A stretch of 6,902 nucleotides of DNA from a virus (IMGVR_UViG_2671180849_000001); one strand, 5' to 3'; positions 1,207 through 6,052 are shown, counted from the stretch's first letter. Notes: generated by a model from the letters alone, not told the origin. Program-made: numbers and translations.

Positions 1207-1623
1207 TTATACCTCTGAATCAATATCAACCTGGTGGTGAGCAATGGTTTCAACCATGTACCGGATGTGTTCTGCCATGCGCTCCTGAAACTCAACATCG
1301 TCATCAAACGCACGGGTAATGGCTTTTTTGCTGGCCCCGTGGCGTTGCAAATGATCGATGCATAGCGATTCAAACAGGTGCTGGGGCAGGCCTTTTTCCA
1401 TGTCGTCTGCCAGTTCTGCCTCTTTCTCTTCACGGGCGATCTGCTGGTAGTGACGCGCCCAGCTCTGAGCCTCAAGACGATCCTGAATGTAATAAGCGTT
1501 CATGGCCGAACTCCTGAAATAGCTGTGAAAATATCGCCCGCGAAATGCCGGGCTGATTAGGAAAACAGGAAAGGGGGTTAGTGAATGCTTTTGCTTGATC
1601 TCAGTTTCAGTATTAATATCCAT
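1207..1623 (-). CDS. gam: Gam, RecBCD inhibitor, 138 aa
   Basis: ORF-track protein [79 protein letters not shown]... recognised as lambda Gam. A 5-nt gap separates it from the bet start, as in lambda. Confidence 0.95.
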
Positions 1624-1721
1624 TTTTTATAAGCGTCGACGGCCTCACGAAACATCTTTTCATCGCCAATAAAAGTGGCGATAGTGAATTTAGTCTGGAT
1701 AGCCATAAGTGTTTGATCCAT
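1578..1721 (-). CDS. kil: Kil, host cell-division (FtsZ) inhibitor, 47 aa; canonical copy
   Basis: ATG at 1721..1719 gives [47 protein letters not shown]. It overlaps the gam start by 46 nt, the lambda arrangement. It is the C-terminal 47 aa of track ORF 1578..1826. Confidence 0.8.
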
Positions 1722-1810
1722 TTTTTGGGACTCCTGGCTGATTAAGTATGTCGATAAGGCGTTTCCATCCGTCACGTAATTTACGGGTGATTCGTTCAAG
1801 TAAAGATTCA
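1608..1810. repeat. Tandem direct repeat, unit 1 of 2 (period 203 bp); this copy carries lambda-type sequence
   Basis: Plus-strand cagtattaatatccattttttataagcgtcgacggcctcacgaaacatcttttcatcgccaataaaagtggc... at 1608 recurs at 1811. Identity runs 1608..1809 versus 1811..2012 with five substitutions, all between about 1681 and 1721. Confidence 0.9.
1690..1810 (-). pseudogene. cIII: 5'-truncated second copy of cIII (codons ~15-54, no start codon) left by the duplication
   Basis: Sequence from the junction down to the canonical cIII stop (plus-strand TTA at 1690..1692) encodes ...[37 protein letters not shown] in the cIII frame, but nothing in that frame initiates it. Confidence 0.6.
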
Positions 1811-1924
1811 CAGTATTAATATCCATTTTTTATAAGCGTCGACGGCCTCACGAAACATCTTTTCATCGCCAATAAAAGTGGCAATAGTGAATTTTGTCTG
1901 GATAGCCATAAGTTTTTTATCCAT
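1808..1924 (-). CDS. kil: Second kil allele in the duplicated unit, 38 aa (MDKKLMAIQ...KKWILIL), ending at a TGA created at the duplication junction
   Basis: ATG at 1924..1922, which is the canonical kil start shifted by 203 bp. Relative to copy 1 it has Q3K and T4K and lacks the last 9 residues. It is part of track ORF 1808..2050. Expression is not known. Confidence 0.45.
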   Translation of the reverse strand: MDKKLMAIQTKFTIATFIGDEKMFREAVDAYKKWILIL

Positions 1925-2013
1925 TTTTGGGGACTCCTGGCTGATTAAGTATGTCGATAAGGCGTTTCCATCCGTCACGTAATTTACGGGTGATTCGTTC
2001 AAGTAAAGATTCG
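1811..2013. repeat. Tandem direct repeat, unit 2 of 2; variant copy
   Basis: Same 203-bp unit directly abutting unit 1. It differs from unit 1 by five substitutions (on the plus strand: g>a, a>t, g>t, g>t, t>g) and no indels. Confidence 0.9.
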
Positions 2014-2057
2014 GAAGGGCAGCCAGCAACAGGCCACCCTGCAATGGCATATTGCAT
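1917..2057 (-). CDS. cIII: CIII (inhibitor of FtsH-mediated CII degradation), 46 aa; stops 8 codons early relative to the 54-aa lambda CIII
   Basis: Reverse complement from the ATG at 2057..2055 reads [46 protein letters not shown] then TAA (plus-strand TTA at 1917..1919). AAGGAG Shine-Dalgarno (plus-strand ctcctt at 2064..2069). The stop arises from a tca>taa substitution within the variant repeat copy. Confidence 0.75.
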   Translation of the reverse strand: MQYAIAGWPVAGCPSESLLERITRKLRDGWKRLIDILNQPGVPKNG

Positions 2058-2951: not shown

Positions 2952-3155
2952 ATATCACCTCAAATAAGTTGTTTGCTGCGAAAGTAAATACGCTTAAGTT
3001 ACCTGTTATTTATCCCACCAAGTTCCGTATCTATCTATCTATCCAGTTACACCAATCATCGACACTCCATTTTGTTGTGTCGCATTTTTGCAACTGGCAT
3101 GAATATCTACCTTCTTTGTAAAGTCGGCGTTTGACTTTCTTGAGCATGGCTCACC

Positions 3156-3497
3156 TCAATCGTAATAAGCTGGAATTGATTTTCCGCGTTGCTTCTGGCG
3201 GCCTGAGCAAGTCACACCCATTTCACTGCGTGGCTTGCGGTAGTAAATACGGTTCTGTTTACGCTCGACTTCTTCTGCCTTCTGGCAGCGAAGGCTTCCG
3301 AGTGATATTGCTTTTTCAGAAAGGCTTAAACGTTTTCTCGGGGCTTCCTGAACAGGTTCCTCACTGTCTGTGCCGAAGATCGAATCGATGATGTTGCATA
3401 TAGCATCACGCTCGATAGCCAGCTTTCTGCGCCGCTCATGACGGCGAGTTTTGGCATTTCCTGCAAATGTTGATTTCCCGTACACGATTACCGTCAT
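3156..3497 (-). CDS. N: N-family transcription antiterminator, 113 aa, with a P22 gene-24-type arginine-rich motif
   Basis: Internal ATG at 3497..3495 of track ORF 3156..3581, preceded by GAGGA. Product starts MTVIVYGKSTFAGNAKTRRHERRRKLAIERDAICNIIDSIFG, matching the P22 N ARM peptide GNAKTRRHERRRKLAIER. The C-terminus ...AEEVERKQNRIYYRKPRSEMGVTCSGRQKQRGKSIP resembles lambda/phage-21 N. P22-type boxB lies upstream. Confidence 0.85.
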   Translation of the reverse strand: MTVIVYGKSTFAGNAKTRRHERRRKLAIERDAICNIIDSIFGTDSEEPVQEAPRKRLSLSEKAISLGSLRCQKAEEVERKQNRIYYRKPRSEMGVTCSGRQKQRGKSIPAYYD

Positions 3498-3616
3498 GAT
3501 GTTTTCCTCATGTGAAATGGCTTTGGGGGTGATGTGCCAGATGCTGATCTTCTGGTTGCTGTCGTTGCAGCTGCAATTCACATCACCGCCAAATCCATCT
3601 CGTTTGGTATCTGTTT

Positions 3617-3910: not shown

Positions 3911-3942
3911 AAGAAAACCCGGCGCAGAGGCCGGGTTTTTCT
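3911..3942. terminator. Bidirectional rho-independent terminator immediately downstream of the accessory cassette
   Basis: Plus strand reads aagAAAA-CCCGGC-gcagag-GCCGGG-TTTTTct: a 6-bp GC stem flanked by an A-run on one side and a T-run on the other, so it is terminator-like on both strands. It abuts the stop codon (3941..3943) of the 258-aa gene. Confidence 0.7.
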
Positions 3943-4717
3943 AGGCTACCAGAGAGTCAATCCAAGAGTCTCTGGTATGGAATGGCAACACTCGTGCGGT
4001 ATCATTAAATAGTAGTGATAGTTGCTGTAGCTCAGGTGTTAACCCATCGCTGTCAACTATTACAAATCTATTGTTTATGTCAGGAACGACCTGACTTAAG
4101 TCAACAATCTTCCCAACTGTTGAGTGGGCAGTATTCCATCCTTTACTGCTGGCAAGGCTTACCGTAAACCCGCGTTTTGGTGGTATTAGTCGAGACTCAT
4201 TCCTTAGCGTTAACGGAACAGTAATGTTATGCCCACTAATACCTTTCACTTTTTCCTTTAAGGCTAGTCGCTTCCCAAGCCCTGCTGATTTTAAGTAACT
4301 GATTACACATTTTTCGAACTTATCGTCTTTGACCTCAGCATACCAATCAGCAGTTTGGGCGGATGCAAGAATCCCACCACGAATAACATTTGCAGTTACC
4401 TGTCCAACGGACGACTCATCTGCCCACGCAGATATCTCTCCAGAGTCATTTAATGAAATTCCTTGCGAAGCGAGTGATGACCTGATCAGATCAATTTTCT
4501 TTTTAGTCAGGTGGATGCCGCGTGATTCAATATTCATCAATGTATCGCAGTAGTCTGTAACCCTATACTGACCACTCATCTCTTGAACGAATACGCTTAT
4601 CTGCTCACAATCATCGTAGTATGTGAAGGGACTAATAACGCGCAGCAACGTGTCGCTCATTGGGTGGCATTCAAACCCGAGCTTAGATATGACTGTTGAA
4701 CACGTTACATTTCCCAT
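3941..4717 (-). CDS. Hypothetical protein, 258 aa, no family recognised; downstream gene of the two-gene cassette at the rexAB-equivalent locus
   Basis: Track ORF MGNVTCSTVISKLGFECHPMSDTLLRVISPFTYYDDCEQ.... The ATG at 4717 overlaps the upstream gene by 13 nt (coupled arrangement). An alternative start is the ATG at 4660 (MSDTLL...), which has no clear Shine-Dalgarno. No long hydrophobic segment, no Walker motif. Confidence 0.7.
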   Translation of the reverse strand: MGNVTCSTVISKLGFECHPMSDTLLRVISPFTYYDDCEQISVFVQEMSGQYRVTDYCDTLMNIESRGIHLTKKKIDLIRSSLASQGISLNDSGEISAWADESSVGQVTANVIRGGILASAQTADWYAEVKDDKFEKCVISYLKSAGLGKRLALKEKVKGISGHNITVPLTLRNESRLIPPKRGFTVSLASSKGWNTAHSTVGKIVDLSQVVPDINNRFVIVDSDGLTPELQQLSLLFNDTARVLPFHTRDSWIDSLVA

Positions 4718-5247
4718 GATAGCTGACCTGATTTATCTTGATTCGGTAAAGGTGGGCTGCCTTCATATATGATATTAAGCGCCTCGCAAAAATAATTCCA
4801 GTAGCCAAAAAAATCATCTGGCTTGATGTTCGTTTCAAGCTTGAGTGCAATTTCTTCCCCAGCTGATTCGAAGTACATGTGATAGTGAGGACCTCGAGCC
4901 ACCTCAACAAAATCTGGATGGTGCACTATAGATTTATTACGGTGTGACTTGTTATGCGCAGGGTACGGGTCAAGCGCGTAAATGCGCCTGTCATGAAGAA
5001 ACATCACAAATGAAAGCTTCACTATATCCACCCCTTCAACGATAGGAGAACGCCAGTGAAGCATAAATCTTATGCCTGTGATTGGGTTGCCAATTTCATC
5101 AAAAGCTTTGAGATCCAATTTAAACCAGATTGGGGTTCGTCCCTCACTTCCGGTCCACGAAACTCCGCTAAAAGTTACTTTTTTCAAGCGAGTAATAGCT
5201 TGGTCAACCTCTTTCTGGGTAGGCTTAAAGTCGCCTTTTTTAGCCAC
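4705..5247 (-). CDS. Hypothetical protein, 180 aa, no family recognised; His-rich central segment; upstream gene of the cassette
   Basis: Track ORF; the first codon is GTG (plus-strand cac at 5245..5247), preceded by GGTGAT 9 nt upstream. Product MAKKGDFKPTQKEVDQAITRLKK... contains FLHDRRIYALDPYPAHNKSHRNKSIVHHPDFVEVARGPHYHMYFE. Same strand as cI, directly downstream of it. Confidence 0.7.
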   Translation of the reverse strand: MAKKGDFKPTQKEVDQAITRLKKVTFSGVSWTGSEGRTPIWFKLDLKAFDEIGNPITGIRFMLHWRSPIVEGVDIVKLSFVMFLHDRRIYALDPYPAHNKSHRNKSIVHHPDFVEVARGPHYHMYFESAGEEIALKLETNIKPDDFFGYWNYFCEALNIIYEGSPPLPNQDKSGQLSWEM

Positions 5248-5344: not shown

Positions 5345-6052
5345 TCACGAACTTTTAATCCATTCCCTTGCCTCGATGTCATCTAGGTGGCGAGATTGCT
5401 TCAAAATACCAGCCACATACTCCACCTTTGCTACTTGATGATAAGGCAACGTTATTGGCCTGTGGTCTTGATTGATGCTTGTAAATTGGTATTCTCCGTC
5501 TCTGTCATAGCCAAGAACCTTGATCATGTTGTGCCCTTCAATGGTTCTGACAAACACTTCATCACCTGGGAATACTTTGGTGTTAGGCTCAATGAGTACA
5601 TATTCTCCTGATTTAATTCTGGGCCACATGCTGTCTCCTTTTACACGAAGACCAAAGGCATCTGGATCATCGCTATAAATCTTGAGCCACCCATCGCGCT
5701 CTTCGGTCATCTCGATGGCACCATCAACACCAAGAATTGCCTCACCAACCACGCGCACTAACCCTTTTTTTAATTTGCCAACAATTGAAAAAGTATCTTC
5801 ATCATTCGCTCCATTTAACGAAGTGCCGTGCTGAAGCCAAACAACATCAACGTTTAGAAATTTCGCAAGCGCATTCATTTTTTCCTGGCGTGGTAAAGAC
5901 TCAGCATTAAACCATTTGCTAACGCCTTTGGACGAAAGAGAAAGGGCACGGGCTATGGCCATTCCCCTACCATGTTCATCAAGACCAGCTTCTTTACAGG
6001 CTTGCGCTAGCCGCTGGGCGAATTCTTTGCGCACTTTTTCATTCTGAACCAT
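5345..6052 (-). CDS. cI: CI-type prophage repressor, 235 aa: N-terminal HTH domain plus C-terminal LexA/S24-like autocleavage domain; not lambda immunity
   Basis: Track ORF MVQNEKVRKEFAQRLAQACKEAGLDEHGRGMAIARALSLSSKGVSKWF... with C-terminal ...LRVKGDSMWPRIKSGEYVLIEPNTKVFPGDEVFV..., the S24-type Ser-containing motif. Divergent from cro across an operator region. Confidence 0.9.
   Translation of the reverse strand: MVQNEKVRKEFAQRLAQACKEAGLDEHGRGMAIARALSLSSKGVSKWFNAESLPRQEKMNALAKFLNVDVVWLQHGTSLNGANDEDTFSIVGKLKKGLVRVVGEAILGVDGAIEMTEERDGWLKIYSDDPDAFGLRVKGDSMWPRIKSGEYVLIEPNTKVFPGDEVFVRTIEGHNMIKVLGYDRDGEYQFTSINQDHRPITLPYHQVAKVEYVAGILKQSRHLDDIEAREWIKSS

Follow-up and report, generated by a model that had tools for sequence, protein, structure and literature searches.

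We describe here a 6,902-nt stretch of the viral contig IMGVR_UViG_2671180849_000001 (the window), in which two head-to-tail copies of a 202-nt segment covering parts of cIII and kil and the start of gam lie between flanks that are V-type on both sides; each copy is identical over its whole length to a different natural allele, and the closest relatives carry the segment once. We consider this to be probably a real and recent heteroallelic tandem duplication in the early-left (pL) operon of a V-type E. coli lambdoid prophage, of the lineage represented by NZ_CP180607 and IMGVR_UViG_2690316241_000001. From the sequence we infer both the recombination pathway and the presence of the structure in DNA rather than in the assembly alone.

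Structure and setting of the repeat

The ORF list, Pfam matches and the annotation of near-identical prophages identify the window as the immunity region and pL operon of a lambdoid prophage, whose pL genes occupy the minus strand. On this strand lie exo' and bet (416-1201), gam, kil and cIII at the repeat, ea10/DUF2528 (2130-2498), ral (2681-2881), an N-type antiterminator (3156-3497) and two genes in the position of rexAB (3941-4717 and 4705-5247). The S24/HTH repressor gene occupies 5345-6052, and cro-like and cII genes are on the plus strand.

Within this operon, a find-repeats scan and TRF independently returned a tandem repeat of 1608-1809 and 1811-2012 with 197 of 202 positions identical, TRF giving a period of 203, 2.0 copies, 97% matches, 0 indels and a score of 775. 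Base-by-base comparison on the plus strand finds differences between copy 1 and copy 2 at 1680/1883 (G/A), 1692/1895 (A/T), 1711/1914 (G/T), 1715/1918 (G/T) and 1726/1929 (T/G). These are exactly five, as the initial annotation had reported, and they are clustered in 47 bp (1680-1726 in copy 1, with partners at 1883-1929 in copy 2), flanked within the repeat by perfectly matching blocks of 72 bp (1608-1679) and 83 bp (1727-1809). That annotation had set a 203-bp duplication at 1608-2013; the repeat is confirmed, but its end had been placed one base too far. The 203rd position is mismatched too (A1810 against G2013), and since A1810 is also unlike T1607, and so matches neither edge, the repeat proper is 202 nt plus one junction base at 1810. 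Apart from 1608-2012 the window has no tandem repeats, and none with a period of at least 40 was found in 134 related lambdoid loci (1.34 Mb).

At an offset of 31609, lambda 33217-33418 is the counterpart of the unit, and after subtraction of 203 nt gam, ea10 and ral sit on lambda coordinates at the same offset, in agreement with the earlier observation that the spacing from gam to ral is that of lambda except for a 203-bp insertion. Of cIII it includes the final 120 of 165 nt, of the long gam ORF the initial 16 nt, and of kil codons 1-38; the cIII and gam portions had been recognized correctly, whereas "the start of kil" understated what is included of that gene. Transcription at the locus runs from right to left. 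Copy 1 (1608-1809, minus strand) is therefore promoter-distal and adjoins gam, and copy 2 (1811-2012, minus strand) is promoter-proximal and adjoins the start of cIII. In sequence, the locus thus has the hallmarks of a tandem duplication: its copies lie side by side, head to tail and in register, one new joint connects them, and the closest relatives (19 E. coli records and 134 lambdoid loci) carry a single unit.

Several structures surround the repeat. Terminator-like GC hairpins with T runs are found on the minus strand at 1536-1553, between the kil stop and the start of the 98-aa form of gam, and at 2088-2105, in the interval from the cIII leader to ea10; neither is part of the repeat, and they could be N-suppressed tL2-type terminators. 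The ea10-ral interval has a near-perfect hairpin (2597-2644) with 22-nt arms and a 4-nt loop, and upstream of the N-like gene lies a pair of 23-nt inverted repeats (3514-3601). Of the two minus-strand genes at the place of rexAB, flanked by N and the repressor, 3941-4717 encodes a DUF1828 protein of 258 aa and 4705-5247 is an overlapping ORF of 180 aa. The pair weakly matches PDC-M24, a candidate defence system in PADLOC, in both components (B at 6e-7, A at 1.5e-3), the 180-aa ORF also matching DUF6978 below the cut-off, and may serve the prophage in exclusion or defence. In sister prophages, insertion sequences are found between the repressor gene and the 180-aa ORF: a 1313-bp IS3 family element in ECO2947 (L135, 5381-6594) and IS100 in Z1323HEC0423 (H117). 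Insertions are accumulating in this prophage lineage.

Allelic identity of the copies and their flanks

A prophage 99.8% identical to the window is present in about ten complete E. coli chromosomes, and the unit occurs once in all 19 of the 19 E. coli records that cover at least 80% of the window. The closest single-copy relatives are the V-type E. coli prophages of NZ_CP180607.1 (L001; PS1Thumoskin9, 664215-670909), NZ_CP030939.1 and NZ_CP046259.1, together with IMGVR_UViG_2690316241_000001. All are 99.8% identical over the entire window and share its variant kil/cIII allele and its immunity region; they differ in having one 202-nt unit and in lacking the window's G1234 and T2892. Removal of 1608-1810 from the window leaves the sequence of L001 except for the SNPs at 1234 and 2892 and an extra TATC unit at 3028-3031, a match that also holds against ECO2947, AMSHJX01 and the IMG/VR contig L130, whereas deleting copy 2 instead leaves six further mismatches to L001. 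Because removal of copy 1 restores the sequence of the relatives, copy 2 is the resident copy and copy 1 the extra one.

We compared both copies with 124 natural single-copy units from IMG/VR and E. coli, the IMG/VR units having been fetched with 62-mers and the full 202-nt comparison done locally. Copy 1 is identical at 202 of 202 positions to the commonest lambda-type allele (87 of the 124 units, on IMG/VR contigs), and copy 2 is identical at 202 of 202 to L001 and to all nine of nine variant-allele loci. The two natural haplotypes are separated by exactly the five sites at which the repeat copies mismatch; between copy 1 and lambda itself, 2 of 202 positions differ, neither of them one of these five. 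When 1,529 E. coli records were sorted by their best match to a 90-nt variant probe, 13 were exact, 185 fell in the 95-99% band (1-4 mismatches) and 1,331 were lambda-type or more diverged. RefSeq annotates the products of the resident allele as CIII, of 46 aa, and as Kil, which starts MDKKL; the 46-aa CIII, the 54-aa CIII and both 47-aa Kil proteins are each found on at least 1000 contigs.

Since each copy is a pre-existing haplotype, the clustered differences predate the duplication and do not reflect later mutation or selection. The initial annotation had taken the clustering to argue against simple slippage and had offered either recombination with a different kil/cIII allele or selection on the cIII/kil overlap as its cause. 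Simple slippage is indeed ruled out, in that the copies were not identical at the outset and the endpoints have no microhomology; recombination accords with the identity of each copy to one natural haplotype, and selection becomes needless. An intramolecular slippage duplication that then diverged by point mutation, possibly selected at this overlap, would give clustered differences with coding changes in both overlapping genes, but it would also have to remake a common allele through five independent mutations, which is not credible, at precisely the sites that separate the haplotypes and with no other change in 202 nt; we regard it as vanishingly improbable. A diversity-generating or programmed variation cassette was considered and rejected: the differences (G/A, A/T, G/T, G/T, T/G) are not confined to adenines, both versions are fixed natural alleles, and there is no reverse transcriptase among the annotated genes of the relatives.

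The flanks of the repeat are V-type on both sides. Positions 1-1607 mismatch V-type loci once (1234) but no lambda-type locus fewer than 24 times; at position 1507 nearly all loci of lambda type already differ from the window, and the most V-like of them (L059) first differs at 1438. To the right of the repeat, the V type is followed through ea10, ral, N and the immunity region. The lambda-type tract is therefore a short patch in a V-type backbone. The 24 or more mismatches over 1-1607 also dispose of a single unequal crossover with an ordinary lambda-type phage, so that an illegitimate joint plus a homologous exchange or conversion is needed. No complete E. coli genome holds the exact parent, with V flanks and the lambda-type allele; the candidate that comes closest mismatches at two of 599 nt, 1458 and 1507. 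The PSS-11 prophage, with the exact 202 nt of copy 1 and with G1234, exemplifies a realistic type of donor. It is common for a genome to carry several kil-cIII modules (in up to 6 places), and NZ_CP030939, a carrier of the V-type prophage, has such modules in 2 places.

These results suggest the following course. The resident prophage would have borne the variant kil/cIII allele, and a lambda-type stretch of 202-203 nt from a second lambdoid phage or prophage would have been placed promoter-distal to it, in register. This would involve a single illegitimate join, essentially blunt and without usable microhomology, between ...GATTC(A) and CAGTATT..., and a homologous exchange or short conversion to the left of the SNP cluster, where both types are identical (1508-1679 for most donors). 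The order may have been either duplication followed by patch conversion, or unequal inter-phage joining followed by homologous resolution.

Beyond the repeat, the window's proteins are all common ones, and its SNPs at 1234 and 2892 are private with respect to all V-type relatives. G1234 is synonymous in gam and is also found in lambda and in many lambda-type phages; it could represent a second small conversion patch from the same donor, whereas T2892 is found in no other sequence. The extra TATC unit belongs to a (TATC)4 microsatellite at 3016-3031, between ral and N, where the 99.8% relatives have (TATC)3; (TATC)4 is shared by L130 and the PSS-11 prophage, and the step is a simple slippage polymorphism. 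A search with this marker had one match in IMG/VR, the single-copy L130, and none in metagenomes.

The joint and its occurrence elsewhere

The parental edges read ...CAGTTT/CAGTATT... and ...AGATTC/GGAAGG..., and the joint reads ...AGATTC-A-CAGTATT..., for which GATTCACAGTATT and GTAAAGATTCACAGTATTAATA would serve as diagnostic spanning strings. There is no usable microhomology at the joint, as the endpoints ...GTTT/CAGT and ...ATTC/GGAA share nothing; an alignment of the joint on TTC was discarded because it predicts a 201-nt period and leaves two extra bases over. Neither the left breakpoint nor the new joint carries a hairpin, the folding there being no stronger than in shuffled sequences.

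The right breakpoint, at the 3' edge of the cIII thermoregulator RNA (RF01804) and 2-3 nt from the beginning of its DNA hairpin, falls between 2012 and 2013 (lambda 33418 and 33419) and coincides to the base with a natural mosaic boundary. In two loci, L138 (E. coli 720632; 2692-2760) and L081, homology stops after ...GTAAAGATTC and an alternative cIII 5' module opens with ATTTAGTT...; the base after ...GATTC is A in these two and G in the other 133 of 135 loci. The alternative module encodes a CIII of 56 aa beginning MIYAIAGGARMGAFQLN..., followed by a TolA-like gene in place of ea10. It is joined to a kil/cIII 3' region of lambda type in 48 of 5,426 E. coli genomes and in 2 of 135 loci. As the first base of the module is A, a donor of this kind would make 1608-1810 a fully templated copy of 203 nt. 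None of the 48 genomes combines the module with the exact sequence of copy 1, the best having one mismatch, at 1759, and an A would match by chance 1 time in 3; we treat a templated A1810 as a lead only. The left breakpoint was rejected as a second mosaic boundary, since leftward divergence sets in at about 1620-1640 in the loci that show it, and one of these loci is merely shifted by an indel.

Taken further, these coincidences would allow a single unequal crossover between a V-type prophage and an unsampled hybrid phage that combined V-type exo-bet-gam, the lambda-type kil/cIII allele and the alternative cIII 5' module starting with A, so that all of 1-1810 would derive from the hybrid with A1810 as a templated base. 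The agreement of the right breakpoint with the L138/L081 boundary, the A at the head of the module, the frequency with which that module adjoins this kil/cIII 3' region and the high mosaicism of lambdoid phages speak for it. However, the required combination occurs in no sampled phage, and L138 and L081 carry T1759, T1458 and T1507 and have 44 mismatches over 1-1810; the best match to the hypothetical donor is 99.6%. The chance of a matching A, a left breakpoint that is no mosaic boundary and the need for an illegitimate join all the same weigh further against such a crossover, which we hold to be very improbable.

The duplication is a singleton in all collections searched. A 28-nt junction string is absent from the GTDB species representatives, IMG/VR and JGI metagenomes, and none of 5,426 complete E. 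coli genomes gives a single-piece match to the junction; in BLAST, the matches of an 81-nt junction query to ordinary genomes fall into two pieces separated by about 202 bp. None of about 50,700 phage records spans both copies, and the junction-specific products of 38, 80 and 82 aa are absent from a 15-billion-protein collection and a gene index, though gene callers may skip such products, which makes this last absence the weaker evidence. Comparison with other lambdoid prophages, as proposed in the initial annotation, thus found the variant allele elsewhere and the duplication nowhere else in these collections.

This singularity bears on the possibility that the structure is a sequencing or assembly artefact of a source with two prophages, one V-type and one lambda-type, produced by a chimeric read or by an error of consensus or polishing, or else that it is present in only a minority of molecules. 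The initial annotation took the clustered differences as an argument against a trivial assembly artefact, but such clustering is compatible with an artefact, at the level of reads or of assembly, where two lambdoid prophages share a genome or sample. Exactly the two alleles of such a genome are mixed here, genomes with several kil-cIII modules are frequent, and the junction holds an odd extra base. Yet the junction k-mers occur in neither parental arrangement, so that a graph mis-join alone could not make them and the reads must contain them, as we reason. Furthermore, the copy is in perfect register with 0 indels over 202 nt, and the sequence beyond the repeat is clean: its ten proteins are all identical to those of L001. 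An artefact is therefore a somewhat unlikely explanation, to be taken seriously all the same.

Against a duplication in the DNA itself stand, besides its being a singleton with unrecorded junction products, the need for two events, the absence from the sample of a parent with the exact V backbone and lambda-type allele, and a joint without microhomology in which one base stays unexplained unless a rare type of donor is invoked. Direct repeats are readily lost through RecA or Red recombination, and ready loss is expected given identical blocks of 72 and 83 bp, which fits both a singleton and a recent origin. If the deletion crossover fell in the left (72-bp) block, the resident allele would be restored; if it fell in the right (83-bp) block, a seamless lambda-type patch would remain in the V backbone. 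Either would remove the odd junction base. It is plausible, then, that the duplication is a transient intermediate of the short-patch mosaicism typical of lambdoid phages.

Gene products and relation to known systems

The duplication leaves the 46-aa cIII with its thermoregulator, a full-length kil and gam all intact, as judged from the reading frames and the RNA element. cIII (1917-2057, minus strand) is the intact natural 46-aa allele, as its translation, Pfam and the CIII of the relatives (WP_001198858.1) agree, and it matches Pfam Lambda_CIII (PF02061) with 106 bits over positions 1-42 of the 42 of the profile. The initial annotation had counted a truncated cIII among the products of the duplication; the 46-aa CIII is instead the resident natural allele, present in the closest relatives. 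The allele differences alter both overlapping genes, changing a Ser codon of cIII to a stop and giving Q3K and T4K in Kil. In this natural variant, the cIII stop TAA overlaps the kil start (ATGGATAA; window 1914-1929, L001 4714-4721), which gives the 46-aa CIII and tight translational coupling alongside Kil Q3K/T4K. Residues 14-37 of CIII are essential and sufficient for activity (PMC1838920), and the 46-aa protein retains them. Its mRNA thermoregulator is present in a single copy on the minus strand at 2012-2070 (Rfam RF01804, 88.5 bits against a gathering threshold of 50, model positions 1-59 of 59), with a matching DNA hairpin at 2015-2069, so that profile, essential residues and 5' thermoregulator RNA together place the gene in the lambda CIII family.

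The sole truncation that the duplication makes on the cIII side is in copy 1, a start-less 3' fragment of lambda type (1690-1809, minus strand, 120 nt) with neither an ATG nor a thermoregulator. No ORF of at least 30 aa ends at 1690, and the only Rfam hit lies outside copy 1; with no start and no RNA element, the fragment does not qualify as a gene.

Two kil alleles are present, as had been noted, but the junction shortens the promoter-proximal one to 38 aa. The full-length kil of 47 aa (1578-1721, minus strand) is the lambda-type allele, identified by translation and Pfam, and kil' (1808-1924, minus strand), the variant allele starting MDKKL, ends at a TGA whose T, on the minus strand, comes from junction base 1810. 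Both match Pfam Lambda_Kil (PF06301, cut-off 27.6) over profile positions 1-31 of 31, with 72.3 bits for the 47-aa copy and 70.8 for the 38-aa copy. Residues 4-38 of Kil form a predicted helix-turn-helix core, and lambda Kil deltaC11 (residues 1-36), which lacks the RSSK motif, still blocks division about 10-fold less efficiently (PMC11762379). By their translations, the full-length Kil has both the core and RSSK, and Kil(1-38) has the core without RSSK. By analogy with deltaC11 and with the 37-aa Kil of HK629, which both keep the core and block division (PMC11762379), the extra Kil(1-38) is probably weakly active; it ends in ...WILIL like deltaC11, with K3 and K4 in addition, whereas HK629 Kil ends in an RSK motif.

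The duplicated gam initiation region described earlier is borne out as 16 nt at 1811-1826, including an ATG at 1824-1826. From this long-gam ATG an ORF of 82 aa (1578-1826, minus strand) runs in frame with the full-length kil, with the Pfam Kil domain at residues 37-67, and might encode an N-terminally extended Kil. gam itself (1207-1623, minus strand) is intact, with a long ORF of 138 aa and a 98-aa form that starts at 1503 and is identical to the protein of L001, the Pfam Gam domain spanning residues 41-138. No promoter-like or terminator-like sites were found inside the repeat, and NCBIfam gave no matches to the small peptides. The net effect on a repressed prophage is probably close to neutral.

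Should the duplication be real, it offers a small, datable case of co-resident lambdoid prophages swapping short patches of alleles, with an unstable duplication of two alleles broken at a module boundary that recurs. We further put forward, as a tentative and rather unlikely proposal, that the window has captured an intermediate of module exchange, its joint lying exactly at the mosaic boundary at lambda 33418/33419 and its heteroallelic partial diploid able to resolve either way; if so, it would directly document that phage mosaicism can arise by a "duplicate then resolve" route, and the prophage would meanwhile express two active Kil peptides. No new gene, system or mechanism is revealed here, and the structural variant, although previously unrecorded, is ordinary in kind. 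For users of the locus, the "truncated cIII" and the clustered substitutions are a caution, as both are ordinary allelic variation, and we advise a check of the reads before the locus is used.

Compared with lambda (NC_001416, 33217-33418), the window has the same genes in the same order and spacing, including the cIII thermoregulator RF01804, but lambda has a single copy of the unit and a 54-aa CIII, and the immunity region and the genes in the rexAB position differ. Classical lambda duplication mutants are kilobase-scale and homoallelic; here, the unit is 203 bp, it joins two different natural alleles, and its pathway is reconstructed from the finished sequence. The elements that the duplication described here would bring together, head-to-tail copies with a novel non-homologous joint and exchange between diverged co-resident lambdoid partners, are shared with tandem duplication and illegitimate recombination in lambda and lambdoid phages and with Red/Rad52-type exchange between phages and resident prophages (for this literature see PMC2327257, PMC3945230).
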